A DNA stretch of 64,000 nucleotides, taken from Geosiphon pyriformis uo1 (Eukaryota > Fungi > Glomeromycota). The stretch is taken from contig JAAOMT010000479.1 in assembly GCA_016748015.1 (NCBI GenBank), positions 709,824-773,823 on the forward strand, written 5' to 3'. Shown here one piece after another: positions 1-50,582 of the stretch. The translations under genes and the position numbers were made by a program. How positions within the stretch are numbered: position 1 is the stretch's first letter; each line of letters begins with the position of its first letter. Under the pieces are notes generated by a model that did not search any database, was not told the DNA's origin, and was given only the letters and a program-made list of their open reading frames with translations.

Positions 1-92
1 CTGCCATTTGTGGTACATTCAACAAACACTCTGAAAAAGCCCCGGCTTTTGAATTTGAACCAGAAGAAGAAAAACCAATAATCGAAACATTT

Positions 93-860
93 ATGGCTCT
101 TAGATCAACGTCCAACTGGGCCGATGAAACAGAACAAAAACATTTTACCCTACACACTAAACCCGAAACCTCTGGATGGAATATACCTTACTCAAAACCC
201 GAACCAAGAAAACAACGCCCCTATATTCCCCTTAAATGTAAGGACTGCCACAAGAAATTATCGTCAATGGAAGCCTGCATTTCACCTGAAGAAGAATATG
301 AGAATTATACTTGTTATTACTGCAAGGCTTGCCACAGAGAGCGATGGGGCCATCTAATAAAAAGAAGCGGAAAATGGGACAACACCCCTTGTTTGACTTG
401 TGGAAATATGCTACTGGAAGAATGCAATTGGATTGATGTAGCAATGAGAGGAGGCATCTGCGATCAGACCTGCCAATATGCTTTATCAATTCAGAAAAAG
501 TAAAAAGAGGAACACCCTTTAATGCAGCATACAACAGTGCTCTCAACAAACTTTATCACTACCCTCATGATGCCGAGATGATTTTCGACTTAGCAATGGC
601 ATTAATTAATGGAGCTACCAAAGAAGATGTTTGTCAAATGAAGGAAGCAGAATACATTGAATACACTATGGAATTAGCTAGATTCGATTACGAAGATGAA
701 GTAGAAGTCTACCACCAAATTGCAAGTCACACCTACCCAACTCATGAAGCTCAAATTCAATGATTAGAGCAAATAAACATTAAGCTATGTGAAGAATGCA
801 TTATGTCTTGCGATAAACAATGGTGTCCTGAATGCTATGCTCTTAGTATCCCCTTGCCCA
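93..860 (+). pseudogene. Element A Cys-rich (putative multi-Zn-finger) module between protease and dUTPase; frameshift near 490 and a stop near 761
   Basis: CKDC, CKAC, CLTC, CDQTC, then LCEECIMSCDKQWCPEC. The same Cys spacing occurs in element B. Confidence 0.8.
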
Positions 861-959
861 GCAAAAATGATGAGAATGAAATTGAATTTAGAGAACCTGA
901 AGAAACAGAAGAAATTAAAACAACACCCATCTACCTTATCAAAAATCAGCCTGCCTTAC

Positions 960-1390
960 AACTTAAGTACTTCAACAACAATGGACAAGGAATAAAACCC
1001 GAAAAAGCACACGAAATTGATGCTGGATATGACCTAAGATATCCAGGCAAGGATACTCTTGTTCTCAAACCCAAATCTCTCACAAAAATCAATCTCAAAA
1101 TTGCACTTGAAATTCTGCCAGGAACAATGGTTCAAATCACCTTTCAGTTCTTTCTGACAAGCAAAGGAATTAATGTTAGAGGAAGAATAATCGATGTTGG
1201 ATATACTGGAGACATAACAGTGATGCTTCAAAATGAAACTGACAAATCATTCAAGATTGAACATGCTGAAAAAATTGCCCAAGCTATCTATCTACCCCTA
1301 ATCAACATTTCGGGTTTGCAACTAGTCAATCAAAGAGAGCAATTAGGAAAAAGCAATAGAGGAACCCAAGGTTTTGGTTCAACTGGACGA
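960..1390 (+). pseudogene. dut: Element A trimeric-type dUTPase domain
   Basis: Motifs DAGYDL (I), IIDVGYTGDI (III), EKIAQAI (IV) and RGTQGFGSTG (V). Motif II is eroded (TFQFFL versus ASRSSL in B). Confidence 0.92.
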
Positions 1391-1667
1391 TTCACAGTTC
1401 CAGTTAATATAGCTCTTAACACACAGAATGAATCCCACCAGATTCTCAGACTTCCACAACTGATTACTATCTCACTCTTTGGAGAACATCTGGAAATCTA
1501 CACCTGCCCAAAGCCAACAACCACACAACAAATTTTTGAGTCCAATGAACAAGTCTGCTTGGAACATAATATTTTGATCTCAAACATTTATATTCCAGAA
1601 GGAACAAAGAAAGTCCAAGTTACTTTTTACAACCCCAATAATTACCCCATAATTTTATTAAATAACT

Positions 1668-2318
1668 NNNNNNNNNNNNNNNNNNNNNNNNNNNNNNNNN
1701 NNNNNNNNNNNNNNNNNNNNNNNNNNNNNNNNNNNNNNNNNNNNNNNNNNNNNNNNNNNNNNNNNNNNNNNNNNNNNNNNNNNNNNNNNNNNNNNNNNNN
1801 NNNNNNNNNNNNNNNNNNNNNNNNNNNNNNNNNNNNNNNNNNNNNNNNNNNNNNNNNNNNNNNNNNNNNNNNNNNNNNNNNNNNNNNNNNNNNNNNNNNN
1901 NNNNNNNNNNNNNNNNNNNNNNNNNNNNNNNNNNNNNNNNNNNNNNNNNNNNNNNNNNNNNNNNNNNNNNNNNNNNNNNNNNNNNNNNNNNNNNNNNNNN
2001 NNNNNNNNNNNNNNNNNNNNNNNNNNNNNNNNNNNNNNNNNNNNNNNNNNNNNNNNNNNNNNNNNNNNNNNNNNNNNNNNNNNNNNNNNNNNNNNNNNNN
2101 NNNNNNNNNNNNNNNNNNNNNNNNNNNNNNNNNNNNNNNNNNNNNNNNNNNNNNNNNNNNNNNNNNNNNNNNNNNNNNNNNNNNNNNNNNNNNNNNNNNN
2201 NNNNNNNNNNNNNNNNNNNNNNNNNNNNNNNNNNNNNNNNNNNNNNNNNNNNNNNNNNNNNNNNNNNNNNNNNNNNNNNNNNNNNNNNNNNNNNNNNNNN
2301 NNNNNNNNNNNNNNNNNN
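1668..2318. other. Assembly gap (651 N)
   Basis: N run. The equivalent interval in B is ~1.5 kb and contains RT-RH, so the gap is probably undersized. Confidence 0.99.
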
Positions 2319-2408
2319 ACACCAATGTTGATTGTCTCTCAAGAATGAGGCAAAATTAGAAAACAAAACCAACACCCATTTGAATTAACAGCATCAAAAC
2401 AACAAACA

Positions 2409-3794
2409 ATGAACTCCGAAAACTACAACAATCTTAAACAATATTTAAAGACATTAACAATCCCAACAGATTGGTCTCCAGACAAAAAACATCAGTTACA
2501 ACAACAAGCCAAACAATATTTTCTACACAACAACATTATCTATTATCGAAATTTCAAAAACCCAACCAAACCACTCAGATTAATACAAGAACTGGAAAAA
2601 GAGACCATTTTATACAATATGCACTCAGATCTTTCATCAGCATACTTTGGAAAAGATAGCACCACCCAAAGAACACTAAAATACTACTTTTGGCCTCGAA
2701 TGAGAAAAGACATTCACGAATATGTCGAATCTTGTGATAGTTGTCAAAGAAGAGGAGGAACTCGCTCTACAGAACCTTTAAATCCAATCAAAGTTGGACA
2801 GTCTTTTGACAGAGTTGATATCAATTTAGTCGGACCACTATCTATCACCACTCAAGGAAAGCATTATATTACAGTAGCTGTAGACTATCTTACTAAATGG
2901 CCGGAAGCCAGAGCCATTCAATGAGCAGATGCAAAATCAGTAGCAAATTTCATCTACGAAGACATCATTTGTAGACACGAATGTCCAATTGAACTTTTAT
3001 CCAATCAGGGAACACACTTTGTGAACAACCTGATACAAAAAATTTGTGAATGATTCAATGTCAAAAGACCTCTGTCTTTGCCCTACCATCCACAAACAAA
3101 CGGACTTGTGGAATGTTTTAACAAAACATTGTGTGAGTCATTAGCCAAAGTTTCAACTGATTTTGAGCAAGAATGGGATCTCTTTATTCCATCAGTGTTA
3201 CTAGCATATAGAACATTAAAACAAGATACCATGAAACACACACCATTTGATTTAACTTATGGAAGGATGGCAACGTTACCAATTAGTTTCACAGTAGAAA
3301 CATATCCAGCACAACCAATTGATGAAAACAATTTCCAAGAAACGCTTCAGCAAAGAGCCTATACTCTGCTTAGCACATTGGAAGAAAAACAATGAATAGC
3401 AGCCACCCATATTGAACACTCCCAAGCTCAACAAAAAGAACGGCATGATAACAAATTGTCTTCAGTCACCAATAAATTTAAAATTGGAAACAAAGTTTTT
3501 TTACACAGAACAAAAGCTGAAAAACAATGGAGTGGAAAATTTGAAAATAAATGGGATGGACCATTCTTTATCCATGAAGTTCTAGGCAATGGATCATACA
3601 AACTAAGACTTGATGACAAAATCCTAGCAAAAGTTGCACATGGAGATCGTTTGAAACACTATCATTCCAGAAACAATCCTGAACCATTAATTCTACAAAT
3701 TGGTACACATTCCTCTTTGGTCAGTCCTGAAGATATTCCCCGAAACTTAGAACCAATAGTTGTCATTAAACAACCTTCCAACCTGAACACTTAA
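2409..3794 (+). pseudogene. Element A integrase as a stand-alone ORF (~461 codons, three in-frame TGA stops)
   Basis: ORFs 2409, 3078 and 3456 are in one frame. HHCC remnant (MHSD..Y..CDSC), DDE remnants (INLVGP, SNQG, GLVECFN), YHPQTNG, C-terminal WDGPF. No chromodomain. Confidence 0.93.
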
Positions 3795-3908
3795 TTTAAT
3801 TTACTAGTTATTCTCTTATAATTTAGAAACAATCTCACAAAAACAAAACAAAAATAACATAAAAACCCATACACCAAAAATAATTTTTAGTTTTTTCAAT
3901 TGCTTATA

Positions 3909-4585
3909 ATGACTATTCCTCAAAACATTTAACAATTATCTCAAAAACTAATGTTAGCTTTAAAAACAATACCTGATTTATCCATTACTGTTATTGGAAA
4001 CCACATTAATTATACCCAAACAGAAGTAGTTACGAATTTAGCCCCAAATTCACAAAAATATCACCCATATAAAAAGAACACAAGAAGTTATACTGGAATT
4101 CACCTGCCAGAACTTTTAAAGCTTGCTTTAAGAGAAAACCTAATGCTCACTCCAATTAGTATTCCACTAAATGCTACAATTCAACAAAAACTTCAACTGT
4201 GTCTCAATGAAGAAAACACTGAATATCCTCCAATCTATAGATATTTTCACATTGGAAAAACACTTTATGAACGGAAACTGGAACTTACAACAGCAAACCT
4301 CACAAAAAAAGCTATTCAGAAACAACTCCACAATAAATTCAAGACAACAGCTGGATCAACAAACAGTCACTACAGGCTTAGAGCTGCTCTTAGACTTTAT
4401 GACCTATTCCACACCTGTGAAAACGTACTACAAAACCCAATTTTTCAACCTTTGAAGATTTAATACATTGGAAAGCTCACAGAACTGAAATTTCAACAAT
4501 TTTCAGACCAAATTTCTTCAATAATTTTGGATTATTATCTGGAAATAACAGACAGTGCTTGGACTTCGACGAAGCTCAGTCTTGA
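3909..4585 (+). pseudogene. Element A accessory ORF3 (~225-240 aa, predicted soluble and helical, not Env-like)
   Basis: ATG 3909 is in frame with ORF 3951-4463, with two TAA stops probably from CAA. Aligns to B ORF3 at the N-terminus (MTIPQNI/MEIPDYI), the core and the C-terminus (DFDEAQS*/DFDGTQY*). The latter requires one frameshift; otherwise the frame runs to 4628 inside the LTR. Confidence 0.7.
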
Positions 4586-4593
4586 GGAGGAGA
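4584..4593 (+). other. Polypurine tract of element A
   Basis: GAGGAGGAGA, 3 nt upstream of the LTR start TGTTACC. Confidence 0.8.
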
Positions 4594-4596
4594 TTA

Positions 4597-5555
4597 TGTT
4601 ACCAGACGAAATTAGAGATATTATTTAGCATGAAATTATCTTATAATTCTTATCATTAATTAGCACATATTATTGTTCAAATGATCACTTATTACATTAG
4701 CAAAAATGTCCAAAATTATCATTTAATTAATAACCCAAATTGTACACAACACAGATGTAACCTAATTGCGATGATCAATCATGCAATACTTCGAACTATG
4801 TAACATTCAGAAGTTTGCCAAAATTTGTAGAAATTTGCTGAAATAATTGATAGTTCACCAAAATAACTTGTAGTTCGCCGAAATGTATCTTTAGTTTAGC
4901 GAAATTGTAGAAAATAGCAAAGTTCAAGTTCATAGAATAGTGTTACAACAAGTTGTATAAAAGAAGAGCTTCTCTCTTCAAGAAAATGTATCTTACTTTA
5001 GATTTATCTCTTAAAACCGTTCCTATACACACAAAAAGAAATAAATATCAAATAAATTCGAAAAACCAAATTCTTTAATTATTGTACTTGAAAAATCTCC
5101 AAAAACCCAACTAACATTTCGAAATTGATTAGCTACCAATTTCAGTAAACTGTTAGTGACTCCAGGCCTGGATAGAAAACGTTTTTCTTGACAAAATTCT
5201 ATTTCTTTTACATTTCTTTTATTTTCTTTTTCTTTTATTATTACAATTATTAGAGTAGCCTACAGACGAGATTCCTGTAGAAGAGTTGACTTTCACAGCA
5301 AAGTAATTATACATTTTAGTGAGCTTTCAGATGAGCAATTCCTGGAAAAGAGTTAACATTTATTACAACATAACTACATAAAGTAACTGGCAAGAAATTG
5401 GCCATTCTACTTATAAGCCCAGCAGTTCAAATTATAGAAAATAATTTGAAGATAAATTCAGTTACTGGAGGTTCAACCACATCCAGAAAACGTGAATTCA
5501 CAGCAAATAAGTATCAACAACATTACTGAAAAGAGACCAAAAACCTCCGGTAACA
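4597..5555 (+). repeat. 3' LTR of element A (959 bp)
   Basis: Starts TGTTACC and ends GGTAACA (perfect 7-bp terminal inverted repeat). Follows the PPT; TATAAAAG near 4956. LINE ORF2 sequence resumes right after 5555. Confidence 0.88.
4811..4905 (+). promoter_or_regulatory. U3 array of 5 phased sites, consensus AGTTCGCCGAAAT, 20-bp period, upstream of TATA
   Basis: Units at 4811, 4831, 4851, 4871 and 4892. Most variants are explained by CpG>TG/CA decay. Confidence 0.7.
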
Positions 5556-6936
5556 TCAACACTCATGCTCTTTTTCAAAAGGTTAAAATTGCATCTAATA
5601 CCAAACAAGCATTTAGCAGCTTCAAAAAAAAAGCCAATACTTTCCTACTATAATGCTTCTAAAGTTCATTAAGAATTCCAGACAAACCAGCAGCTTTATT
5701 ATTAAGCAAATTACTAATAGTTAAAGACAATTCTCCTATGTTAATTTCTTTCATTACACCAGAGAAAGCATCATTATTCACATAATTCAGAGACATATAT
5801 TGACAAGACTACAGATCAGGCATCTTTGAAAGTACTGACTGCTTTCTTGTTCACCTTTCTATGATCTCATTAACCTTAGGCTCCATCACTATTATATTGT
5901 TTACCATCAGGTAATCCAAAACAACCTTGTGAAATGAGCATTTCAAAATGTTTTTTATCATTTATTCTTTGTCAAAACAGAAATTTTTTATATACTGGTT
6001 AATAGTCTTTCTAATATTAATATCTTCAGCCAATTTTAATTTATAATACTTAAATTTCTGATATTTTTTTCTCACTACTGACAAATGTCTAACCAAATCT
6101 CTTGAACCAATACTATCTAAAACCATGCTAATAATTTTAAATGTCTCAACAATATCAATAGATGTCCAAATCTTAACAAGGCAGTCAAAATTCAGAAAAT
6201 CTCCAGAATTTCAACATTTTACAATCTTGGCAATAAGCAGCTCCAACTTATAAAATTTTGATGATTGTTTGTTTTTTAAACAATTATATTTACTATACCA
6301 GCTCTTAGAAAACACTTCAATAATAGCTTGTATCATGACTTCTTTCAACAAATTTCACATTATATCTAAGTTACTATTGTCTTTTGCAACTTCAAACATG
6401 TTCAATCTGGTCAACAACACAGTGGAAAAACATTCCCTAAAATGCAACTATTAAACTTCATCAGCATTCTCCAACTTGAACTTCTATTGGTTTTAGTTGG
6501 CCTGCTTATGAGCACTAATAAAATGAGCATTCAGAAATTCATCCAAACCAATTAAAACTGAAACTAACTTATGATCTGTATTAAAAAACCTAGACACATT
6601 ATCAACTTTATGTGATACAACTGCAGATATTAGATTCTTATTTACAAAGATAAAATCTATAACTCTTTCAATGCCTTTAAAATTGTTCCAAGTAGGAGCT
6701 TTGGCCAATACATGTCTATTGAAAGTATTAACCAGACCCAAATCTAAGCAAAACTTAAAACTAGCACTTTTTTTGGATTCATTTTCATTAAAGTCACCAC
6801 CTAAAACCACAAAAAAGTTAGAATTGACTGCCTTAAATATCATAGAGTTGATATTAGCAGCTTGGCCAAAACAAGTACCAATAGGTACACAAACATAAAG
6901 ATCCAAAACTAAAACCAAAAACTTATTCTTAAACAG
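5556..6936 (-). mobile_element. LINE ORF2 fragment (C-terminal half of APE endonuclease, linker, start of RT)
   Basis: VLGGDFNE, PTW, VIDFIFV and NTDH APE motifs (ORF 6493-6918). KAAGLSGI (KAPGPDG-equivalent) lies near 5680-5700. Confidence 0.9.
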
Positions 6937-7781
6937 TGTTACAAATAATTATTTGGGGTCTCAAATCAAATAACAAATCCATAACTTGGTACTTGGTTGG
7001 TATTCCAGTATTAATATCTAAAGATGTGGTTTATCTGAAGGTTTTATTGTGAAGTTTTTTGTATAATGGACAGAAATTTAATTGATGGTTTTATCTGTAG
7101 CTTCCTAAAACCACAGTTTTGTCAAATTTTTTTCTCAGCATGGTGGCTGGTAATCCTCCTGGTAAGCTATCCTCAAATCTATGAGTGTTTTATCCTTGTT
7201 TCACGGGTCTTTTACCAGTCTCTATGACATCTGTAACTCAGCGCTTAATTCTTAATCAATTTAGTAAAACCAAAGAAATAACAAAAGAAATAAAAGAAAA
7301 TAAAAGAAAATAAAGAATAAACAAAAGCAATTGCAAGTTAGTATTCCATCAATAGCCATGATCAAGAGCTATTGTTCTAGTATGGTTAAGTATCAATTAC
7401 TATCAACATGAAGTGTTGATAATGAAGAATGAATTGAGATAGTGAATAATTATTTATTGATATTTTATAAATTAGAAGGTCGCTTAGATGAAATCTAAAC
7501 TGAAAGATCTGTTTTTTCTATTTCTAATGTTATTATTATATATACATAATTTGGGTTCTATGAGATCACTCACATTCTTGAGTGATGTGCTATAATTTTT
7601 CAAGCAATGCTCACATTGCTAAACAATATGCTATATTTTCTGATATTGCTCCACATTGCTGAACAATGTGCCATGATTTCTGATATTGCTCCATATTGCT
7701 GAGCAATGTGCTCACATGTTAACTACTACTCTCTTATTGGTCTACTATTTTTCTATATCTGTTTTCTTTGTATGAGTAACA
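6937..7781 (-). repeat. 3' LTR of element B (845 bp)
   Basis: TGTTAC...GTAACA; direct repeat of 16119-16963. The minus-strand purine tract AAAAAAGAGAAAA at ~7785-7797 abuts it. Confidence 0.97.
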
Positions 7782-7795
7782 TTATTTTCTCTTTT

Positions 7796-8431
7796 TTAAT
7801 ATTGAGTTCCATCAAAATCTTTATTTTGAATTAATTCCAATACTTTTTTTTCAAGTATTGTTTATTTGACTCTGTTTCTCATGTTTTCTACTTGTGTATT
7901 GTTTATTTTTCTTTATTGGTTAATGGTTATGGTTTCTATGTCAAAGTGTAACAGTATTTCTGAATAGTTTTGAAATATGTTGTGTAATCGGTACATTGTT
8001 TTAACATGTAGTGTTGAATTTGTTTTCTTTTCAATAAATTCTTCAATTTGTTGTATTATGTTTTGGTTGAATATTCTCTTGGATTTGTCAATATACAACT
8101 TTTGAATATTCAACTTTTGACCTAACTAATAGTAGCAATATGATATTAAAAGTTGTTCTGTTCATTGCTTCCAATTTTTTTTTGTAAGCTCTTTTGTTGG
8201 TGCCATAATAGGTATTTTCCCAAAAGTGTTCTTTACTTTTTCTATTAAGTTATCTGTCTAGTTTTTATTATTCTTTGGTGGCTGCTGATATAGTGTCTTC
8301 TTTGTCTTTCTTTGGGTGTTTTAATAGCAAATTATTTGGTTGTTAATAACAATTTCTATGTCTAACTGTTGTTGACTTAAGGCCTGGAACAATTGTTGAA
8401 CTATAGTGTCAATATAATCTGGTATTTCCAT
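7796..8431 (-). pseudogene. Element B accessory ORF3 (homologue of A ORF3), with stops and a frameshift
   Basis: ATG at 8431 (MEIPDYIDTIVQQLFQAL). Core in ORF 7913-8113 (KTMYRLHNIF versus A RAALRLYDLF). Ends DFDGTQY* at the PPT. Confidence 0.68.
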
Positions 8432-8489
8432 TTTTTTTTCTTGGTTGCTTTTGTTGCATGTACTGTGTCTTTATATACTTTTTGGTTGT

Positions 8490-9872
8490 TCAATTTGACG
8501 TGTTTGGTTCAATAACTATGATTGGTTCCAGATCTTGTAAAATTTTATCTGGTTAAGCTAGTATTCTTTGTATTCCCAATTGTGAAATGTTATTGGTAGA
8601 TGATAATACTATCTGGTAATATGGTTTCAGTCAATCACCATGTGCTGCTTTGGCTAAAATTTTGTTGTTCCATCTTAATTTATAAGCTTTATTTCCTAGA
8701 ATTTCTTTTATGTGAAATGGTCTATCCCATTTGGGGTCAAATTTTCCACTCCATTGTTTTTCCACTTTGGTACAATGTAATAATACTTTGTCTCCAATCT
8801 TGAATTCAATTGGTTTATCTAGTAATTAATTATCGTGTTATTTTTTTTGCTTTTTTTGTGCTTTTTGAATGTTATCAGCTGCTTTTTGTCATCTGTTTTC
8901 TAGTGTTTTCATTAAGTCATATATTTTTCTCAACAATGTTTCTTGGAAATTATCTTCTGTTATTGGTTCAGTTAGATATGTATTGATCTCTATCTCAATT
9001 AGTAATGTTGCTGTTCTACTATATACCAATTCAAATAGTGTTGGTTGTGTGGTATCTTGTTTCATTGTTTGATAAGCAAATAATACTGATGGTATAAACA
9101 AATCTCATTCATTCTGGTTTTCTTGGCTAATTTTTGCTATTGCTTTACACAGTGTTCTGTTGAATCTTTCAACTAACTCATTTGTTTGTGGATGGTATGA
9201 TGATGATAGTGGTTTTTTTATTCCAAATCTTTGGCTTAATTCTGCTAATGTTTTATTCACAAAGTGAGTTCCTTGATTCAATAATAATTCTTTTGGACAT
9301 TCATGTTGACAGATCAAATCTTAATGAATGAATTTGGCAACAGATTTTGTATCTGCTCTTTGAATGGCTTTTGCTTCTGGCCATTTAGTGAGATAGTCCA
9401 TGGCTACTGCAATATATCTGTTGCCTCTGCTGGTGATTGTTAACAGTCTGACTAAGTTAATTCCAATGTGATCGAATAGTTGTTTCACTTTGATTGGTCT
9501 CAATGGTTTACTGGGTCTTGTTCCTCCTCTTCTCTGACAAGCATCACAATTTTGAATATACTGGATGATGTCTGGATATATTGATGGCCAATAGTATTTT
9601 TTCCTAGTTCTTTTCATGGTTGCTTCTTTATAAAAATGTCTTGCTGTTGGATCTGAATGCATATTGAACAATATTGTCTCTTTTTCTGATTCCTTGATTA
9701 CTCTGGTTGGTTGATCTGGATTCTTTTTGTTTTTTTGGTAAAGTATATTTTGGTGATTGATAAAATATTTTGATTGTTGTTTGATGTTGTTTTGTTTCTT
9801 TTGAGATAATTTCTTCTTGAATAATTGGATATTTATATAATGTTGGAGTTGTTGATATTTTTGTATATTTAT
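8490..9872 (-). pseudogene. Element B integrase as a separate ORF
   Basis: MHSDPTARHF...CDAC (HHCC), GINLV, NQGTHF, YHPQTNELVERFN. Starts (M>I)NIQKYQQLQHY 30 nt after the RNaseH stop. The 3' limit is approximate. Confidence 0.9.
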
Positions 9873-9902
9873 CTTTTGTTATATTTTTGGGTTGAAATGT
9901 TT

Positions 9903-11300
9903 TTAAATTTGTTTCATTTGCAACAATCTGTCAGCATTTCTATTGTCTTTTCCTTTTTTATAATGTACTGTATAATTGAATGGTGAAAGTTCTATTTTCC
10001 ATCTGGTATGGTGGTTATCTCCAAATTCTTGCTTCTGAATTGAAGTCAATCTCTTGTAATCAGTGTACACCTCAAATTTCTGACTTAAGTATTCTTTCTA
10101 CTTGATGACAGTCCAATAGATAGCTAAGTGTTTCAGTGCTGGAGTTCTATAGTTTTTTTCTGCTGGATTTAAGCTTCTATTGGCATAAGCTACTGGATGT
10201 TCTTTTCCATTCAGTCTTTTTTGCAATAGTACTGCTCCCAATGCTTGACCAGATGCATCTGTGGTGATTATAAATGGCTTGCTATAATCTGGATAGATCA
10301 GTACTGAGGCTTGAATAAGCTTTCTTCTTAATATATCAAAAGCTTTTTGTTGAGTTTCAGTCCATTTGTATTTGGTGTTCTTTGTTTGGAGTTGGTGTAG
10401 TAGTTGAGCTATTTTGGAAAAGTCTTTAATAAAGTAGTAGTAGTATCCAGCAAATCCCAAGAAGGCTCTCAATTCTGTGAGATTATTTGGTACTGGAAAG
10501 TTCTTGACAATTTTGATCTTGTCTGAATCCATTTTAATTCTATTTTTGCTCACAACATGTTCCAAAAACTTGAGTTCAGTTTTTCCAAAGAAACATTTGG
10601 TTGCATTTAGTTTTAATCTGGCTCTTCTTAATCTTTTGAACACTTGTTGGAGATGATGCAGATGATCATCAAATGTTTTTGAGAACACATTTGTGTTATT
10701 TAAGTAGACAACTACTGATTTCCACAGTAATCCAGTATAGACAATTTTCATGAGCTGTTGGAATGTTGCTGAAGCATTCATCAAGCCAAATAGCATGACT
10801 TCAAACTCAAAATTTTTTTCTCTTGTGGTAAATACTGTTTTTTTTTTGTCGGCTGAGTTCATGGCTACTTGCCAATAACTATTATCTAAGTCTAGTGTTG
10901 AGAACCATTTATTTCTTCCAAAAGCATTGAATAGTTCTTGGATTTTTGGAGTTGGATAGCTATCCCCTTTAGTTACTCCATTCAGTTTCCAGTAATTCAC
11001 ACAAAAGTGGATTTTCCTATTTTTCTTCTGGATTAATACCACTGGTGACAAACATAGACTCATTGATGGCTGAATTAGCCCATTTTTAAGCATCTAATTG
11101 ATTTCTTGCCAAATGATTTCATGGCTAGCTGGTGGTACTCTGTATGCTCTTTGTTTAATTAACATTACATCTTCAGTCTTGATCTGATGCTGGATGATGT
11201 TGGTGTGGCCAAATTTATTTTTGCTAGCAAAAATGTTATTGAAATTGTTAAGTAACATCCTTAGTTGCATTTGTTGGAGTGGGTCTAGATTCTCCATGTT
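9903..11300 (-). pseudogene. Element B reverse transcriptase-RNase H
   Basis: SPVVLIQKK, FSTLDL, YLNN (eroded YLDD), TDASG..LGAVL, VAYANRSL. Ends NADRLLQMKQI* at 9903. Confidence 0.95.
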
Positions 11301-11729
11301 TATCTGTTCCAATTGTTTTGGTTGGAGCAGATAACATTCACTTTGCCCATAGATGGTTTGTGATGTGATGTCCACATATCTGCAAAGCTGTGAAAAATCT
11401 GGAATATGGTCTGGTGGTTGATCTTCAACTTTAGTGATTAAATATCCAATGATGGTTCCTTTTGGTATTTCAATAACATTTCCCATTGTGTTGTAGATGA
11501 AAATTTTGATGTTTTTGGGGCTTTTGGCTAATATGTAGAGATTAGTGAGTTCAATCTCTCCTAATTTACAAATGGTGGCTTCTGCTTCAAACAACTGAGC
11601 TCGATTCTTTACTTTTCTTTTTATGGCTAACATATACTGGTCATATGGTGGGATGGAAATTGATTGACAGATTGAGATAATTTCTCCTTTGTCAATACTC
11701 TTTTCCTCTGCCATATTAACTGGTATATC

Positions 11730-12155
11730 TATTCTTTCTGTTAATCCGAATTCTTATATCTTTCTAGCTGTTATTCCTAGTTTTTCTTTGTTTCTTACTG
11801 ACACTAATTGAGCTATTTTTACCAGAAGTAGGAATATTGCCTGTGCTATTTTTTCATTTGGATCTATGATATATGCTTTTTTTAAGTCATTTTGTAGCAT
11901 AGCAATAATATTTTTTACATATCCTGCATCAATTATTTCTCCTCTAATGTTGATCCTTTTTTTTACTAAACTACTCCTGGATGCTAGTTAAACCATTGTT
12001 GTTGCTGGAATTTCCAATGCTATTTTCAGATTGATACAAGTGCGTAAATGTGGTTTCAATATGATAGAATTTTTCCCCAGATATCTCAGATCAAATTCTG
12101 CATCAGTATCATGTGTGTGTTTTGGCATGATACTTTCACTATTATCATTAAACTA
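11730..12155 (-). pseudogene. dut: Element B dUTPase domain
   Basis: Manual translation gives TDAEFDLRY, LASRSSL, IIDAGY and EKIAQAI, plus an eroded motif V. Colinear with the A dUTPase. Confidence 0.88.
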
Positions 12156-12389
12156 TTTAAGTTCCTGTTCCTTGGTAAGATCAGGAAGTGCAATATATGT
12201 TTCGGAGTTTGAATTGGAGTTTGAATCTGAGTTAAAATTATTGCTATTTTGAGCAAAACTGGAACCATTATTTTCATCATCATCATTGTTGGAGTTTGAA
12301 TCAGGATTGAAAATTGATTCTAATTCTGATGTGCAGTTGCTGATTGGTTTTTCCTTTTTGGGGATCATGTAGATTATGTGGATCAGTGA

Positions 12390-13020
12390 ATTCACATTTA
12401 TTACAATATTAAAAGTCACATGGGATTATACAATGGTCACATAGTCTTGTGTTTATTTCTTCCAACTATTGCTTTTGTTCCTTTCTAGTGGGTGCTAATT
12501 CCTGGTAGTGTTCATAGAATTGTTTTGGATCTAGGAGGTTTATAACTGGTTTTGGGTCTTAGTCAAGTTTTATGGGTTTAGGTGGGTTATTTTTAATTGT
12601 TTTTATTTTTTCTGATGATGCCCCTTTAATTTTGGCAAGTGCTATTCACCAGATTTCATCATTGTTGTGTGGACATCCATCTAATCGTTTGACTACACAT
12701 CTCCAAGTGGTGTCTATAGGTGTTCCTTTTCTTACCCAGTTGCTTATAAGAATCATGTATTGACACAATTTGTCGCATGTTTTTCCCCTCCCAGAAATGT
12801 TATTCCACATTCCTTCGTCAAGGAGAGTTTCCCCACAAGCCAAGCACAGCTCATTATCCCATTTTCCCACTTGTTTTGGTCTTCCAAAATGTTTTATAAT
12901 GCATAAGCAACAGTAAAACTTGGTTGCCATCTGGTATTCCTTATCATCATCACAGCAAGCACTCATTAATAACAATTTCTTGTTACAATCAATGCATACC
13001 AGTTTTGGGCAGTAATAAAC
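12390..13020 (-). pseudogene. Element B Cys-rich module between protease and dUTPase
   Basis: CIDC, CCLC, GKWDNELCLAC, CDKLCQY, LCDHCIIPCDF.YCNKC; matches element A. Confidence 0.8.
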
Positions 13021-13339
13021 AGATTGCTGTGGTATGATGTAGGAATTATAAGTGGTGGTACTGGTGGATATTGATTTTTTTTCCTTCTCCTTTTTTTTTT
13101 TTTGTCTTTTCTTCTCATTCTTAATTTATTAGCTCTTCCTGGTTGTCATTGGTTCCCCAGGCTTGGTCAAAATTTCAGGTAGATTCTTTTTTTTTTTTTT
13201 CTTTTTCATTGTTGCCCTACAAAAATACCAGTGGTAACTCATTGTGGTCTTCATCAGCCCACGAAACTTGGTATGCTTCCCAGATAGGTTTCTTCTTTTC
13301 TTCCTTGAACTTGATAAAAAATGCTAACATGTTGGGTGT

Positions 13340-13730
13340 TTTGAAATAGCCACATATGGCTGGTACCCATATGTGTCAACCATTCTGGCTGAGTTGAAGC
13401 TCTTATATGTTCTAATCAAGCATTGCATTAGTTTTGGACAGCCAGTTATTGCCAACAAGTGCTTGATATTGAATGGTTTCCATGACTAATACTTTGATTG
13501 ACACAATAATACCATTGATTTCTATAGGGAAGTCATCAATCTTGCCAATCAGAGTTTTGGTCATTCTATTAGCTGTGATAATTCATATGCTGGCAGCTCG
13601 ATCAACTTAGTGACCTAATTGGTCTATAAGTTGTCTTGTGATAATACTGCCAGCTGATTCACTGTCTAAGGTTAGTTTGATTGAATAACCATCAACTTTG
13701 GCATCAGTGTACATAACAGTAATAGGTTTT
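13340..13730 (-). pseudogene. Element B aspartic protease
   Basis: IKLTLDSESAGSII (DSG>DSE), then ALVGNNWL and VPAICG. Confidence 0.85.
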
Positions 13731-16095
13731 TCTTTGAGAGCAGCTCCACTAAATAATGGCGTGGCTGACAGTTCTTTGAGTTTAAATGGAAAAATAGTGT
13801 CCAGTGATTTGTTCTCAGTAATGGTAGCTGGTAGAATGTTGCTGGTAAGTGTTGCTTGTTGATTGGTTTCCGGATTATTGGGTTGGGTGTTTTCTAAGAT
13901 AACTAGGAAACTTAAATAATTTTGAGAACTTAGGTTTTGAGTATACCTAGTTCCTAATCTCCACTGTTGTGATCCAAATGGCTGGTTGGATGAACTGGGG
14001 ATCAGTTGGTGAACAACCATTGCCAATCTCCAGTTTTGGGTGACTTTGGGGTTTTCTGATGTCATTTGAGCTGGGTTGGATGATAGTATTTGAACTGTGA
14101 GTGTTTGATAAATTATTTATGGCTGCAGTAGTTGATATATTATTGGTGACCGCAGTTGATAAACTGGAGGTTGATATATGAATAGTTAATATATTGGCTG
14201 TTGTGTCATTGACAGATAAGTTAGTTGATATGGTGCTGAGTTGGGTTGGTAACTCGGAATTGGAAACCAGCAATCAGGGTTTTGATATTGATTTCCCAAT
14301 CATTGGTTTTCTATTTTTAGCCTACAGTCAATTCTTAAATGTTCTTGTTTACTACAGTAGTGGCAAACATGCATCTCTTGCTGTTACTGTTAATTGTTCA
14401 AAGAAGATAGATGTGACTGATTCTGGAAATGATTTGCATTTCCTTGGATATTACATCATTGTGAAAGTTGATAAATTATGTGATTGTTAGCTAAATATCT
14501 CTCTAATTTCTGATTAATTGAGTCACTAAATTGTTTTAATTTGGAATTCAATTTAGATGATCTGTTTATTATTAAATTCATGGCTTAAGCATGGTTGGCT
14601 TCAAGTTCAGCTGCTTCAAAATCTCTGGCATTAGTAACTGCAGCTTGAAGGTCTGCTGGATGCATTGGGCATACACATTGGAGGATGTTACTGCGCAGAC
14701 CTCTAATAAATTGGTTTAGAATTTGTGGCACTGTAAAATAGTCAGCCTGGATTGCTTGAATTTGGCATAGATTCTTATAGAAGTGTTCTAGATAAGTAGT
14801 GACTGCTTCATTTTCCCCTTGTTTGATAGTGGTGAAAGTGTTTGCTAGCCGATTAATACTATTATTATTGCTGAAATATTGTAGAAATGCAAGCTTGAAT
14901 GTATTAAAATCCTGAGATTTGTTAGCCAAGCTTTGATACCATAAATTGGTGGTATCCTGAAGAAAGTAGAGAATGGCCTACATGGCTCTGGCATCATTCC
15001 AACTGTTGGCTGCAATGGCTTTTTCTACATTGTTTAGCCACACTTGGCGTCATTCTCTTTGCCAGTGAATTTTTTAAGTTTGATGATAAGAGCATATGCT
15101 ATTGGTGCTATGATTTGTTGTTGTGGTGGTTGGTGGAGTTGTTGTTGCAGCAGTTGAAGTGGCTGTTGTGGTTGTTGGAGTGGTTGAAGTGGCTGCTGTT
15201 AAATCAGTTCAATAATCAGTTCAATTGGTGGTTGATTAATAATGATTACTAGAAATAAGTTTTGCTGATTAATTGTTTCGGGGTTTCAATCGTCCTGATT
15301 GTGCTGTATTTGAAAATTCAGAGTTTCAACTTCCAGGTTTTTAGTGATCAAATTCTGGTAAGTAAATTCTTGATCTTCAGATTCTTTTTTTTTTTTCTCT
15401 TCTGATTCTGTTATCTCCCAGGGACTTGCATTTCCAAAATCTGGTTGAGGTGGTAGTGATTGGAATTCTAATGGCATTGGCAATTACAATTTAAATCCTT
15501 CAAAATAATCGCCATAGGTTCCTAGTAATTCTGCTTTCTTTTGTTTACTTTGAAATGGTAGTTGTCCAAATGTTGATATTGCATGTAATGTGGACGCACC
15601 TGTTGATGAGATGTTGATGGTGCTTTCTAAGATGTAATGATATGATAGATTTGTTAGTGATTCAACTCTGGTTTTTTTCCAAGTAGGTAGTTGTATTTGT
15701 TTTGGTATCACTACTGGTGTTTGTAGTCTTCCCTTTCTTTTGTCTACATAAGTAATTGGGAATTATTGTTGTGTGTACCTTTCAATGGTTTGATTAATTT
15801 CCCTAATGATTGGTGTGAAACTGTAGTTTCTTGGTAAGCTGGTATGTTGAAATAATTCTGTATAAAAATTTTTCCTTGTGGATTCAATGTTAACTGTTTC
15901 TCCTAAGCAGTCTGTGATTTTATTGTTGATATAGAAGTTAAAGACAGATTCTGCTGGGAAGTGGTTATTGTTTAGTTTTAATTGTTGGCTGTATTGTTAG
16001 AACAAGAATTTGGCGAATCTTAAATGGTTTGCTCTTATGGTTTCTGATTCTGCCACTTTTGGATGATTGCTGTTGGTGCTGGTTCTCTGCAGGAT
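13730..16095 (-). pseudogene. Element B gag (long N-terminal extension, capsid, CCHC knuckle, Q/P-rich linker)
   Basis: Retrotransposon-gag motifs FKLAFLQYF, IKQGENEAV and QFIRGL (14585-14929). CHYCSKQEHLRIDC at ~14323-14364. Start codon not identified. Confidence 0.85.
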
Positions 16096-16101
16096 TATAT
16101 T

Positions 16102-16116
16102 TCACAGAAAGCACCA
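16102..16116 (-). other. Primer-binding site of element B (TGGTGCTTTCTGTGA)
   Basis: Begins TGG 2 nt after the 5' LTR end; complementary to a tRNA 3' end ...UCACAGAAAGCACCA. Confidence 0.8.
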
Positions 16117-16118
16117 AA

Positions 16119-16963
16119 TGTTACAGATGATTATTTGGGGTCTCAAATCAAATAACAAATCTGTAACTTGGTGCTTGGTTGGTATTTCAGTATTGATATC
16201 TAAAGATGTAGTTTATCTGAAGGTTTTTTTATGGGGTTTTTTGTATAATAGACAGAGATTTAATTGATGGTTTTATCCATAGCTTTCCAAAACTGCAGTT
16301 TCATCAAATTTTTTTCTTAGCATGGTGGCCGGTAATTTTCTTGGTAAGCTATTCTCAAATCTATGAGTGTTCTACCCTTGTTTCACGGGTCTTTTACCAG
16401 TCTCTATGATGTCTGTAATTCAGTGCTTAATCCTTAATCAATTTAATAAAACCAAAGAAATAACAAAAGAAATAAAAGAAAATAAAAGAAAATAAAAAAT
16501 AAACAAAAGCAATTTCAAGTTAGTATCCCGTCAATAGCCATAATCAAGAGCTATTGTTCCAGTGTAGTTAAGTATCAATTACTATTAACATAGAGTGTTG
16601 ATAGTAGAGAGTGGATTGAGATAGTAAATAATTATTTATTAATATTTTGTGAATTAGAAGGTTGCTTAGATGAAATCTAAACTGGAAGGTCTGTTTTTTT
16701 TACTTCTAATGCTATCACTATATATACATAATTTGGGTTTTATAAGATTGCTCACATTCTCGGGTAATATGCTATAATTTCTCAAGCAATACTCATATTG
16801 CTGAGCAATATGCTATATTTTTTAACATTGCTCCACATTGCTGAGCAATGTGCTGTAATTTCTGACATTGCTCTATATTGCTGAGCAATGTGCTCATGTG
16901 TTAACTACTACTTTCTTATTGGTTTACTATTTTTCTATATCTGTTTTCTTTGTATGAGTAACA
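16119..16963 (-). repeat. 5' LTR of element B (845 bp)
   Basis: Direct repeat of 6937-7781; roughly 90% identical over the ~335 bp I aligned by hand. Confidence 0.97.
16750..16893 (-). promoter_or_regulatory. U3 array of 4 palindromes CACATTGCT-G-AGCAATGTG, 40-bp period, upstream of TATATATA (also at ~7570-7712)
   Basis: CTGAGCAAT at 16801, 16841 and 16881, with a variant at ~16760. TATA-like box at ~16718-16726 on the element strand. Confidence 0.72.
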
Positions 16964-16967
16964 ACAG

Positions 16968-19330
16968 AAGACATACAAAAATCAACCAACCAGAAACTTT
17001 TTCCACTGTAGACACATGATAAGCCAAAGAATTATTTATGATTATAACAACTCCAGTACCAAAAAAACCTGCATTCAAACCAGAAGTAAAAACCCAAACA
17101 CTATTAAACTTATTCTTGATTTATGGCCTAATATTAGATCTCAATTTTGTTTCTGTAACAATCAAAACCATGTTTCTTGCTTTCATATGCCAACAAACAA
17201 CATCATTTTGCTTGGCAAAAACATTAACACTCCAAACATTACATGTAGCAAATTTCCAAACCAGATTACTTATTAAGAAGTAAAAAAAGCTAATAAATTC
17301 AAACTAGAGCACAAATAATTCAACCTCTCCAAAACTAATTCAACTGATACTTCTAAAGCCACCAACTTAAATTCCAATCCACTCATCTTGGTGGTCAAAA
17401 CCTTAGAACTACTTGAGCTAAAGTCAACAATTATATTTGCAATAACTGAAAGAAAAAAGATGAAAAACATTAATATATTATTCAGAGCCATATCTGAATC
17501 CAAATCAGAAGCCAAAAATGCTGGAGTAACCAGAGATAATACATAAAACTTGGATGTTAGGAGCACCAATTCTACAAAGCTCAGTTTTTTCATAATAACA
17601 GGAACTTGATTCACCAAAAGCTTCAAAAAGTGGTCCAAAAAAGCCAAATAATCAACCAAACAGGAATCACTAAGAGGATTGAAAACCATTGGAATGAGTT
17701 TCACACCCAAAGACAAACCAGGACCAAAAAAATCTGATAAAATTACATAGGATGAAAAACCACCAGCAATTTGGGCCCAAGTCTTGTCACCAAAAGAAAC
17801 TGAATAAGCAATAGGCACCTGCTTTTTTTTATAAATGTTGGCTAAGTGGACACAATTCTGAAAAATTACCATCCACTTACTATGACCACCAGGATTCTCA
17901 TCTACTGCACAATTAACAGATATATGACCAAATTGTTTACATCGAGCACAACAGACCAAAGAGAGACCAGTCCAGTGCAAATTCACACCCTTAAACACTG
18001 GAGTAGAGCCAATAGCAGCCAATTTGGATGCCTTATTTTCAAAACACACTATAACACACTTATCATGCATATATGAATTTGGATTATGGCCAATGATGCA
18101 AGTTTTTCTATCATAAAAGACCAACAAATCAGCTAAATCATGAGCAATAGTGTCAATTAGAAGTGTATACAACAAAGCTTAATGCTAATTTCTGGATATC
18201 CATATTTGTTTATTATCAATGGTTTTTGCCACACAAACAGAATTCTATAAAAACAGACCATTTAACTATAACCAAATCAGCTATCTCAGATGATTTATAT
18301 TCTACCAAAGCCTTTTGCCACAGACCAATCAATTGTAATTTGATTAAAACAACTTTATCAAATTTTGAAAAGACTAATTTTACAGCTGATTTAGGAAGAT
18401 TAATTGGAATCTTCTTAACAATTACTTTTTAATCTAATTAATTGTTTGGTTTTCTAATATTATCATTCACCAAAATTTTTTCACCAATAGCCATTTCTTT
18501 GGCTTTGATTAAACTAAATTTGGAAGTAAAAAAAGATCTAATAATGTCAGAAAATTTTAAAAAAACAGATGCTCTTCCAAAACTGTCAACTTGATAAAAA
18601 ATTTTTTTTACAATAATTAACTTATCACTAATAGTATTGTTAGATAAGGCAGATAACTTAATATTCAATGCAAATGACTTAACTAGATCGAAAACATGTT
18701 TTTTCAATATATGTAACCTGACAGAGTACAACTTTTTGAAGTCTGCAAACTTAGAAGATGGAAGAGCCACTATATTTTTATTATTACTTAAAATGTCAAA
18801 TAAAGGAGTTTTTGGGAGTTAACTTAATATGTATATGTAAGTGCATATTTTTTTGGGTGTAGTATTATCCTTCATGTCATTAACCACTAAAGCATCTAAA
18901 TTAGCAACAGTATTTTTCATGTTTTCTAAATCCAACAGACCATTTATGCAATTTGCTTTGCTTTCTATTTTGCTATTCCAAGATTTTGAAAACTTATCAT
19001 CAATGTTACCAATATTGGCCAGGTTCAATGAGCCAGCAGATGAGTCAACTACATTGATGCCAACTTTAGAATTCTTAGGCTTTTTGTAGAATACACTGTG
19101 AGAGTACACATTATTTACTCTCTTCTTTTTGGCATTAGGCTGGTTTCCCAATCCAGCAGAAGTAGATCTAGAACTATTAGCAACAGAACTTGTCAGTTCT
19201 ATGTTTACGAATAAAGGTATGTCTGAAGAAATAGCTGAAAGTATAAAAGAAATAGAAAGTAGGAACAACTTTCTCTTTGGCAATATCTTGCTCTTGTTGT
19301 GATTGGAGGATCAACAAGAGAAAGAAAGTT
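16968..19330 (-). mobile_element. LINE 5' part: ORF1 (fragments 18819-19283, 18438-18770, 17273-18175, with CCHC knuckle) and start of ORF2 APE
   Basis: CARCKQFGHISVNC knuckle; ORF2 N-terminus WKFATCNV...VTETKL. Removing B and one TSD restores the frame ...CLLFKNKFLVLVLDLY into 6918. Confidence 0.92.
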
Positions 19331-22685: not shown

Positions 22686-24044
22686 TTAGACGCTCGGTTT
22701 TCTTCTTTCAGCCTCAAGACGACTGTACAACAAATAAAGTGCCATTTGATTCGATTCAGCAGTTCCGGTAATTGTAACCAAACGTTCATTCGTGTTACCG
22801 TGTGGTTCAGCAATTTTTATATGGGAACCAGAAAGATGCCTAATCTCGTTGATTTTACTTCCTCCTTTTCCAATAATACAACCAACCATATCATTTGGAA
22901 TGAAAATTTGTTGTGCTTGGGAGCCTGGTGGAGGTTGATTCATTGGTCCCAGGGGACCAGGCATAAATTCGCGACCGTAAGGTGGTGGCGGGGCAGGAAG
23001 ACTGACATAAAATTGGTGATTGCTAGTGACAGAGGGCTGATGATAGACGATTCGTGGCTGAGGTCTATATGGAGTGATTTGACCACCACGATCGTTTAGA
23101 TGTCTCGATAATTCTTCACCAATATGAAAAACTGCGATATGAATGGAGTCGGGTACACCAGAAATCGAAATGGTGCGTTCCGTCGAACTAGGCAGCATTT
23201 CTTCAGAAGCTAGACATCTGGCACCGGATTTTTCTTGGATTTCTTTGATTTTTGTCCCACCTTTCCCTATCACTGGACCCATTCTAGAATGAGGCACAAG
23301 TAGTCGAATTGTAGTGGACTTGGAGGTAGGGGTGGATGGAGTGTCCAAATTTTCATCGAGGACCTTTCGTGCCACAAGAGCGAAAGCCTAGAGCAGAGAT
23401 GAAAGCAAACGGGTATGAAATTTATGGGCAAATCCAAAAAAACGCTTTATTATATTATATGCTAAGCACCATCTTTACAGCAAGATTGAGATTCACGATG
23501 ATAATTGCAGCTATCGAGTGTTATACATTGGGAAATTCGGTTGACATACCTTAGCAACCGTGTCCAGAGGTCCGGTGACTGTAAGAATTCTTTCATAGGC
23601 ACCTTGAACCATCTCGGATATAGTAACTTTTGCACCAGATCTATCACGAATCTCGCTAACGTTTTTTCCGGCTTTGCCAATAATCACACCAGCTTCTTTG
23701 GTAGTAACTAAGGCGCGAAGTGAAATGGTTTGTAAAACAGCTTCTGTTTCGTTAGGCAGGTTAGTCTTTTCCTTGGTATCATTGCACTTTTCAGATGGCG
23801 GAGTATTTACATCCATAACTTCAGGAGAGGCTGAAGAAGAAACGACGGCCCTATCTTCACCATTAATTTCTTGAAAAGCTAATTCTGAATTTTCGTCTTC
23901 CTCTCCCCCAGAGTTATTCAAAGCTGGACGCTTAAATCGTCCTCTACCTTCATCAAAACTAAGGTCGTCCTCATCGTCGTCTGAAGGAAGAGAACGCTTC
24001 CTTTCAGAGGGTGAGGGAGCAGCATCTTCACCACGGTCAGACAT
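22686..24044 (-). CDS. Three-KH-domain RNA-binding protein (hnRNP K/PCBP; fungal Rnc1/Pbp2/Hek2-like), 2 exons, ~398 aa
   Basis: Exons 24044-23550 and 23387-22686 with a GTATGT...TAG intron. KH GxxG loops IIGKAG, VIGKGG and IIGKGG. Confidence 0.93.
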
Positions 24045-24809
24045 TCGTTATGAGGAGTAATAGGAGGGTAATGGATTGTGATAGAAAGCCAAACTGCAAA
24101 AGGAAGATTGTTGGGGGTGTGAGCGTTACTTTTTGGGATATATATACGACATAAATTGCAAGAGGTAGCATTTTGTTCAAAAATGAGACTTTCTCGTTTA
24201 TATGTGTTATCTAAGCAAGACTATTGAAAGGAAGCAAAAAAGGAGAAAGAAAGCAAGTTGGACAGGGACGGTACCAAAAAGCAGATTTACTGAATTTTAA
24301 AGGGTTGCGAGGAGGTGGAGAAGGTTGTGAGGTATTCCTTAGAGCTACAACTACTTCAGTGTTGATCTTTTGATTGTCTTGTCTCCTAAAGACAAAAATA
24401 CGTTGGTTGGCGTGCCTAAAAGAAGGATTTTGGGAATTTTTTATGTTCTTTGATTTTCCCTTTAATCAAAAAGTTGATCTTTGATGATAAGAGATTGATA
24501 GATGGGAAGGTAAGGGTTGAATTTGATCAAAGAACAATCTTAAAGTTACAATGATAAACAAAGTACAAAGTTGAAAGCGGGCAAACAACCTTCTAACAAA
24601 TTTATACTTTTCATAGATGAATTGAAAAAGGTTAGTTTAAAAATGAAAAAGGTATTTGCTTATTTCAAAGGAATCGAAATCTTTTTAAAAAATATTTAAT
24701 CATTAAATGCAACAAAAAATAAAATTGATTAAATTTAAACACAAAAACACAATATGTGCATTATTAAATCAAGAATTAATTTTTGGTAAATTATTAATTT
24801 TGTTATTAC

Positions 24810-50467: not shown

Positions 50468-50582
50468 TGATAAAGGGTTCAGTTTTAAAATCATCTTTTT
50501 CAATTATAATCAGAATTCACGGCATTTTTGGTTTCTGAAATTGCAAATAATTTATTTCCGATAAGCTCGAAATTTTTTTAGA

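Follow-up and report, generated by a model that had tools for sequence, protein, structure and literature searches.

The window analysed here, a stretch of 64,000 nucleotides from Geosiphon pyriformis uo1 (GCA_016748015.1, contig JAAOMT010000479.1, positions 709,824 to 773,823), is AT-rich fungal DNA in which positions 1-16963 were found to hold two retrotransposons of the long terminal repeat (LTR) kind, named A and B, in opposite orientation. They represent a variant of the Ty3/gypsy type with a separate integrase, which is firmly supported, and a conserved accessory open reading frame (ORF) of unassigned family, termed ORF3. The architecture alone, namely a separate integrase gene followed by ORF3 in most members of the lineage, is almost certain. 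A fuller reading, put at slightly less than an even chance, is that A and B are mutation-killed copies of elements whose ORF3 would act on a repeat array in the adjoining U3 region of the LTR.

Element B is complete and carries LTRs, a primer-binding site (PBS), Gag, protease, a Cys-rich module, dUTPase, reverse transcriptase (RT), RNase H, integrase, ORF3 and a polypurine tract (PPT) (Table 1). Its LTRs, of 845 bp each, are 89% identical with termini TGTTAC...GTAACA, the PBS starts with TGG two bases past the LTR, and the target duplication is 4 bp. Element A is partial, with Gag, protease and 5' LTR before base 1 and RT and RNase H mostly within a gap of 651 N, so that the full plan is visible in B only. 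The initial annotation had described one non-standard plan common to two elements with LTRs of 845 and 959 bp. This was confirmed in full for B, including both LTRs, and in A for the Cys-rich module, dUTPase, RNase H end, integrase, ORF3, PPT and 3' LTR alone, the rest of A being off the window or in the gap. Repeat-contig cover, which drops from ~390,000 to 5,000 past the bin containing position 5555, supports the LTR end of A, and no RNA data set was listed as containing this element.

A separate integrase gene

The integrase of A opens with its own ATG in another frame than RNase H. That of B shares the RNase H frame, from which two stops separate it, and has ATA as its start; these points weigh against a separate gene, and B alone would not prove the split. 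Among relatives, a protein search limited to 253-807 aa gave 1,219 matches, of which the best 120 were used and 119 retained after one chimeric model was dropped. The same Met as in A begins 101 of these 119 intact integrases, with D, E or N as the second residue in all 101, and four of the integrases compared in the integrase tree are named Rhizophagus irregularis. A DNA search without length limit yielded 548 related stretches from 13 of the 64 parts of a metagenome collection, and the best 80 were kept (loci labelled in the style L001). RT or RNase H is visible upstream in 36 of these loci, which are informative, the other 44 being uninformative.

The integrase is a separate ORF in 36/36 informative loci, none being fused to RNase H and many being fully open; as the DNA query was built from stand-alone integrases, this figure defines a clade and not its share among all gypsy elements. 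Its frame relative to RNase H is distributed over the three possibilities (12, 13 and 11 loci), and the spacing from RNase H stop to integrase start ranges from -14 to +827 nt, with 12 loci overlapping by 1-14 nt and 24 gapped by 24-827 nt (two of the latter with a broken RNase H). The integrase ATG lies in a start-codon context, with a purine at -3 in 28 of 34 and G at +4 in 22 of 34. Frameshifting and readthrough into the integrase were rejected, since all three frames are used and the spacing varies. The separate integrase is an inherited feature of the lineage and not a product of decay. Both the stop after RNase H and the independent start of the integrase, as initially proposed, thus stand on the ATG and frame in A and on the relatives, and the uninterrupted RNase H-integrase polyprotein which the initial annotation had named as the contrary outcome was seen in none of the 36, ORF3 being conserved as well.

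It is extremely improbable that A and B are normal gypsy elements with a single Pol whose stops and extra ORFs arose merely through decay or faulty assembly. Both window copies are indeed stop-ridden, B has its in-frame ATA start, the RT of A falls in the gap and the protein search was restricted in length. However, the DNA of the relatives was recovered without such a limit and is unfused, in many cases fully open and in three frames, and ORF3 is intact in many of the 120 listed Geosiphon proteins (239 aa in 23, 221 aa in 18).

ORF3 is conserved and dispensable

A conserved, non-Env third ORF ending at the PPT had also been proposed; in A it runs through the PPT, in B it ends there, and 28 relatives have a homologue. 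In a census of the 65 loci which reach the integrase end, an ORF3 homologue lies downstream of the integrase in 28, and 12 run from integrase to PPT and LTR without one (two further ORF3-less loci were recognized on re-inspection); 25 of the 65 were unclassified, mostly being too short. The training alignments included 22 of the 28 positive loci, the other six being independent detections (E 1e-21 to 2e-6). All 120 listed homologues carry the name of Geosiphon pyriformis and share 59-93% identity with the query, which points to Geosiphon or a near relative as the host. At one of the two stops in the ORF3 of A (position 4461), reads show a sense codon in 98% of depth.

Compared directly, the ORF3 copies of A and B are only weakly similar (24%, E 0.004), and B ORF3 does not score above 500 shuffles with the A-family profile. 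The two are linked via intermediates, with E values of 1e-29 to 6e-9 on the B side (36% identity to P0275 at E 1e-29; 27% to P0274 at E 6e-9) and of 1e-20 to 4e-12 on the A side. On the integrase tree (a quick tree of this lineage only, with no outgroup), the ORF3 presence label needs three changes. ORF3 is real and conserved, yet dispensable, as at least 12 relatives without it keep a separate integrase. Sharing by ancestry rather than by decay, as first suggested for the whole plan, holds for the RNase H stop, the separate integrase and ORF3.

No membrane segment was found in ORF3 in 57 rows, and no space is left for another ORF before the PPT, so no envelope gene is present. More than 1 kb separates integrase and ORF3 in L031 (2596-3693) and L047 (3695-5055), with no sense ORF of at least 130 codons in between.

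ORF3 is predicted to be a soluble, all-helical protein, with a mean model confidence (pLDDT) of 92.6 for a 148-aa member and 77.1 for the A family; it is mostly net basic and diverges faster than the integrase (mean identity 20% vs 44%). The sole named lead, a weak one, is the DUF1016 N-terminal domain (PF17761), for which Pfam gave E 0.07-0.11, far under the cut-off, and Atlas 0.85. Profile comparison with this domain (hhalign) gave scores of 21.7-25.0 against shuffled maxima of 16.5-21.4, but a probability of only 2-10%. Foldseek of the ORF3 model against the PDB and viral libraries gave no match at E 0.001 or better, a profile search of solved structures returned only a VirG-like protein (E 0.045), and Atlas leads for both ORF3 and the Cys module were below 0.9 only. 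The best results of a wide structural search (Z 4.5, root-mean-square deviation 3.3 over 70 aligned; Z 5.2, 2.6 over 68 aligned) are evidence neither for novelty of the fold nor for any departure from those already known.

The U3 arrays and the possible role of ORF3

The U3 region of A holds five sites spaced by 20/20/20/21 bp upstream of TATAAAA, and the differences between sites fit CpG decay of a palindromic core. That of B holds three 19-bp palindromes at 40-bp spacing, made of 10-bp units. Periodicity exceeds that of shuffled sequences (18 against a maximum of 14 in A; 45 and 46 against 14 and 12 in the B LTRs). The phased palindrome array before the TATA box, as initially described, was accordingly retained as a periodic array in both elements; the palindrome count itself is not clearly above shuffles (A 3 against a maximum of 3; B 3 against 3 and 3 against 2), and arrays in relatives, with periods mostly of 9-10 or 18-20 bp, are mostly direct repeats.

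In the proposed mechanism ORF3 would bind the repeat array in the neighbouring U3, thereby switching on or protecting its own element. Judged from sequence, ORF3 may be a nucleic-acid-binding regulator acting on the array, either a transactivator or a VANC-like anti-silencer in a methylating host, a proposal which is tentative and rather below an even chance; the array as a putative operator is held with the same reserve. In its favour, arrays scoring at least 25 were counted in 13 of 18 U3 regions with ORF3 but in only 1 of 10 without it (p 0.004 by Fisher's test, 0.002 by a rank test). The weak DUF1016 lead and the signs of host methylation are also reckoned on its side. For these scores the TATA box was set by hand in L002 and not found in L051, and L043, which scored 10, was excluded as its LTR start is unsure.

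Several observations weigh against this reading. The cut-off of 25 was chosen after the scores had been seen, and the ORF3-less set consists of two integrase clades, so that it represents about two independent events. An array (31) is present in ORF3-less L030, A itself scores only 18, and a mere 9 is reached by L002, to which A and B are most closely related; the scarcity of palindromes outside A and B belongs here too. Array similarity follows the integrase (partial rho 0.52, p 0.0005, 17 elements), and once integrase relatedness is removed no correlation with the similarity of ORF3 is left (partial rho -0.10, p 0.78, 17 elements, with ORF3 identities near noise). As ORF3 adjoins U3, their travelling together can be plain linkage.

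A different account of the same architecture sees in the arrays nothing but ordinary enhancer repeats that evolve fast and serve host factors, while ORF3 acts elsewhere, for example by helping to assemble the particle, by recruiting the free integrase to it, or by opposing host defence. This is a real possibility, though somewhat less likely than not. In its favour, array sequence tracks integrase and host relatedness rather than ORF3, short repeated motifs are present in ORF3-less U3 regions too, and U3 repeats specific to a subfamily are a common feature among LTR elements. It has more difficulty with the far lower frequency of strong arrays where ORF3 is lacking, and the ORF3-less members, in keeping a separate integrase, show that ORF3 is not required to package or express it.

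A short GC-containing U3 motif near the LTR start was observed in L007, L012, L016, L017, L018, L031, L046, L048, L050, L053 and L066. It spans ORF3-bearing and ORF3-less elements, was not seen in A or B, and is likely a host factor site.

ORF3 might instead act on RNA, the array, transcribed directly behind its stop codon in every element transcript, being a Rex/Rev-like response element, or ORF3 being a TAV-like factor by which ribosomes are helped to translate downstream cistrons. The U3 of the 3' LTR belongs to the element transcript, direct repeats of 7-14 nt with strand asymmetry make up many of the arrays, and ORF3 is, as noted, mostly basic. Nevertheless this alternative is improbable: the arrays of A and B, dyad-symmetric, spaced by 20 or 40 bp and immediately ahead of the TATA box, would fit binding to double-stranded DNA, and integrase is separate also without ORF3, leaving no need for a TAV-like factor.

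Expression of the integrase

Gag, protease, RT and RNase H would be read from the genomic RNA and the integrase would be initiated afresh. Initiation from a subgenomic RNA, or at an internal site of ribosome entry near the integrase ATG, is favoured and given an even chance; reinitiation by stop and restart is possible although clearly doubtful, and splicing is unlikely. Spacers of 20-170 nt are poor in ATG (9 seen vs 19 expected, P 0.009), a scarcity which would suit scanning over a short leader, although the deficit over all 22 spacers together (36 vs 45) is not significant (P 0.09). With their 7-12 ATGs, the three spacers of 365-727 nt would block scanning from the RNase H stop, and this speaks against simple reinitiation as a general rule. 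Universal stop-start coupling was rejected, 24 of the 36 loci being gapped by at least 24 nt. The region upstream of the integrase yielded no splice or TATA signal common to the loci, TATAWA and branch-point patterns being equal to controls, and this counts against the fuller reading. TATAAA before the integrase (9/33 vs 2/33) was discarded as a signal, being explained by Tyr-Lys codons of RNase H.

A conserved RNA motif of ~37 nt occurs once per locus in 16 of the 80 loci; 0-13 nt, and in one case 32 nt, separate its end from the integrase ATG. It is drawn as a hairpin in which 7 of 11 pairs are changed on both sides and 97% of cells pair, based on 14 related sequences from which the structure itself was drawn. 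The hairpin was not found in A or B (best E 0.46), whose spacers are unstructured and A/C-rich, and it had no Rfam match in the seven loci scanned and no exact-pattern match in viral contigs. It is a candidate translation element or protein-binding operator of one subclade.

A C-terminal extension of RNase H, of 240-320 aa with a conserved Cys/His-rich module, was observed in the hairpin-bearing subclade (L009:4336-5163, L016, L024, L031, L013, L025 and L027). It had no Pfam match in the one scanned, and a short stretch of it resembles part of the Cys module of A and B. In ORF3-less L030, the place of RNase H is taken by an ORF (509-1234) that ends immediately ahead of the integrase ATG and contains a domain of restriction-endonuclease-like type (PF13156, E 5e-9).

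A single in-frame stop lies between Gag-protease and RT in L005 (870), L022 (902), L026 (3290), L048 (3358), L063 (1585) and L066 (929). In all six loci shown its context, TGA then CTA five times and a tobacco mosaic virus (TMV)-type TAG once, is of the readthrough type, and this suggests that readthrough into RT may be programmed.

The dUTPase and the Cys-rich module

Both modules are common to A and B, with ~40% identity each. The large Cys module and dUTPase were found in none of the 80 loci, of which only about ten span the interval, and dUTPase in none of 10 long polyproteins; a smaller four-Cys motif is present in that interval in 3 of 7 loci examined. They would be add-ons of the Geosiphon subfamily. 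The initial description of a Cys-rich module plus dUTPase between protease and RT holds in B, and both modules are present in A, but it is not supported as a lineage-wide feature. The dUTPase placement is in any case already published for fungi, rotifers and planarians in the accessible parts of PMC2864245, PMC5408684 and PMC6431247.

Relationship to known elements

Element B shares its TG...CA LTRs, PBS, PPT, target-site duplication, capsid-type Gag and the order protease, RT, RNase H, integrase with Ty3/gypsy elements (Metaviridae, yeast Ty3). Ty3 is also the closest among solved relatives (RT 224 bits vs 136 for the next; integrase 170 vs 115, E 7e-49). The canonical arrangement places the integrase at the end of the Pol polyprotein, whereas here it has its own ORF, followed by ORF3; the lineage is therefore filed as a Ty3/gypsy variant and not as a canonical member. 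A chromodomain, as in chromoviruses, was found neither in the integrases of A and B nor among the precomputed domains of 120 relatives.

Tas of foamy viruses and Tax of human T-lymphotropic virus (HTLV) act on LTR repeats as accessory genes of the 3' end. The likeness to these viruses consists in the 3' position of an accessory gene adjoining repeats of the LTR; they differ in that there is no Env here, the split falls between RNase H and integrase rather than between Gag and Pol, and transactivation is only putative. In foamy viruses the enzyme gene is likewise expressed apart from Gag, an internal promoter being reported in the part of PMC7828637 available.

Fungal gypsy elements with dUTPase (Tuber Tmt1, Postia PosPlaTy3-5), and also those of rotifers and planarians, carry it at the same position (PMC2864245 and PMC6431247, available portions). 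No separate integrase is described there for Tmt1 or PosPlaTy3-5, and the published dUTPase tree is of chromodomain-bearing elements, A and B being without a chromodomain match. The bdelloid rotifer elements Juno, Vesta and TelKA combine dUTPase with a third, non-envelope ORF gained and lost by family, but that ORF encodes a DEDDy nuclease, a GDSL esterase or a membrane protein and the integrase lies in pol (PMC5408684, in part). VANDAL elements of Arabidopsis resemble the present lineage in an accessory protein (VANC) and in family-specific tandem motif arrays within the element, in a methylating host (PMC6719617, in part); however, VANDAL is a DNA transposon, ORF3 showed no similarity to VANC in Pfam scans, and demethylation by ORF3 is only putative.

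The five integrase position states in the accessible part of PMC2774666 do not distinguish a separately initiated integrase behind RNase H, nor is one described in the corresponding parts of PMC2582038, PMC11952901, bioRxiv 10.1101/2021.03.30.436303 or PMC2774666 itself. No paper on a split integrase was found in a search to which Repbase, GyDB, REXdb, most subscription journals and supplements lay outside, so a prior description may exist.

The boldest form of the proposal is doubtful, though possible. It holds that the lineage independently evolved the logic of complex retroviruses, with a free integrase gene under its own translation control (by a structured RNA in one subclade), ORF3 as a new class of sequence-specific DNA-binding protein, and ORF3 plus U3 array as a swappable, family-specific regulator-operator cassette that would activate or de-silence.

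Genomic context and decay

Both LTR elements were inserted into a single decayed element resembling a long interspersed nuclear element (LINE). Besides the part between the insertions (5556-6936), a piece lies at 16964-19310, also on the minus strand, with the 5' part beyond 16964, and the target duplication of B interrupts the endonuclease-bearing ORF. Both A and B are dead, with numerous stops and, in B, a decayed RT active site. The observed/expected CpG ratio of the elements, 0.11-0.35, is far below the 0.9-1.0 of two stretches that bear genes, and the LTR pair of B differs at 90 positions, 88 of them by transitions; from base composition, the CpG depletion may be read as host methylation.

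Three host genes were noted elsewhere in the window. One on the minus strand (22686-24047) has three KH domains over two open frames. A second (26899-29274, minus strand) consists of a frame of 791 codons whose product would have a charged tail and a single hydrophobic segment, and the third (50565-53850, plus strand) is multi-exon and membrane-protein-like; neither of these two has a Pfam match.

Table 1. Features of elements A and B and of their target in the window, and loci of relatives carrying the leader hairpin
Feature	Position	Strand	Remarks
A Cys-rich module	210-843	+	six Cys pairs; one frameshift and one stop; 40% and 31% identity to module of B; no Pfam family above cut-off
A dUTPase	998-1387	+	PF00692, E 7e-16
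Gap of 651 N	1668-2318		expected place of A RT and most of RNase H
A RNase H, final codons	2319-2359	+	TAG stop at 2357-2359; same stop position as B
A stand-alone integrase ORF	2409-3794	+	own ATG at 2409, 49 nt past RNase H stop, other frame; three decay stops
A ORF3, 239 aa	3909-4628	+	two decay stops, Gln at both in other copies; overlaps PPT and LTR start
A PPT	4584-4596	+	
A 3' LTR, 959 bp	4597-5555	+	terminal TGTTAC/GTAACA motifs
A U3 array	4812-4904	+	five near-palindromic sites, 20-21 bp spacing; TATA box at 4956
LINE-like target element	5556-6936	-	endonuclease and start of RT, between insertions; single uninterrupted decayed frame; PF14529 weak
B 3' LTR, 845 bp	6937-7781	-	palindromes at 7710, 7670, 7630; target duplication 6933-6936
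B ORF3	7770-8431	-	decayed, ~220 codons; ends at PPT (7782-7797)
B integrase ORF	8490-9872	-	start codon ATA; 30 nt past RNase H stop; 53% identical to that of A
B RT and RNase H	9903-11195	-	terminal TAA at 9905-9903; RT active site decayed; best solved relative Ty3 RT, E 4e-65
B dUTPase	11735-12150	-	decayed
B Cys-rich module	12394-13011	-	
B aspartic protease	13436-13705	-	PF13975, E 2e-7
B Gag	14300-16050	-	capsid domain; zinc knuckle decayed; 5' limit approximate; PF03732 E 1e-11, PF19259 E 4e-8
B 5' LTR, 845 bp	16119-16963	-	palindromes at 16892, 16852, 16812; TATA box at 16744; PBS next; target duplication 16964-16967
Leader hairpin in relatives	L007:295-331, L008, L009:5193-5229, L013, L015, L016:4464-4500, L024, L025, L027, L031, L055, L058, L068, L071, L076, L004		

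Significance

LTR elements normally bring the integrase into the particle fused to Gag-Pol, and a whole lineage with a separately encoded integrase raises the questions of how it is expressed and packaged. The lineage includes integrases of Rhizophagus irregularis, and LTR elements make up 41% of the Geosiphon genome according to the portion of PMC11952901 available. The natural ORF3-less clades and the integrase-leader hairpin offer ready controls. Should ORF3 indeed act on these arrays, a retrotransposon would here encode its own regulator or anti-silencer, in the form of a protein whose family is unassigned.

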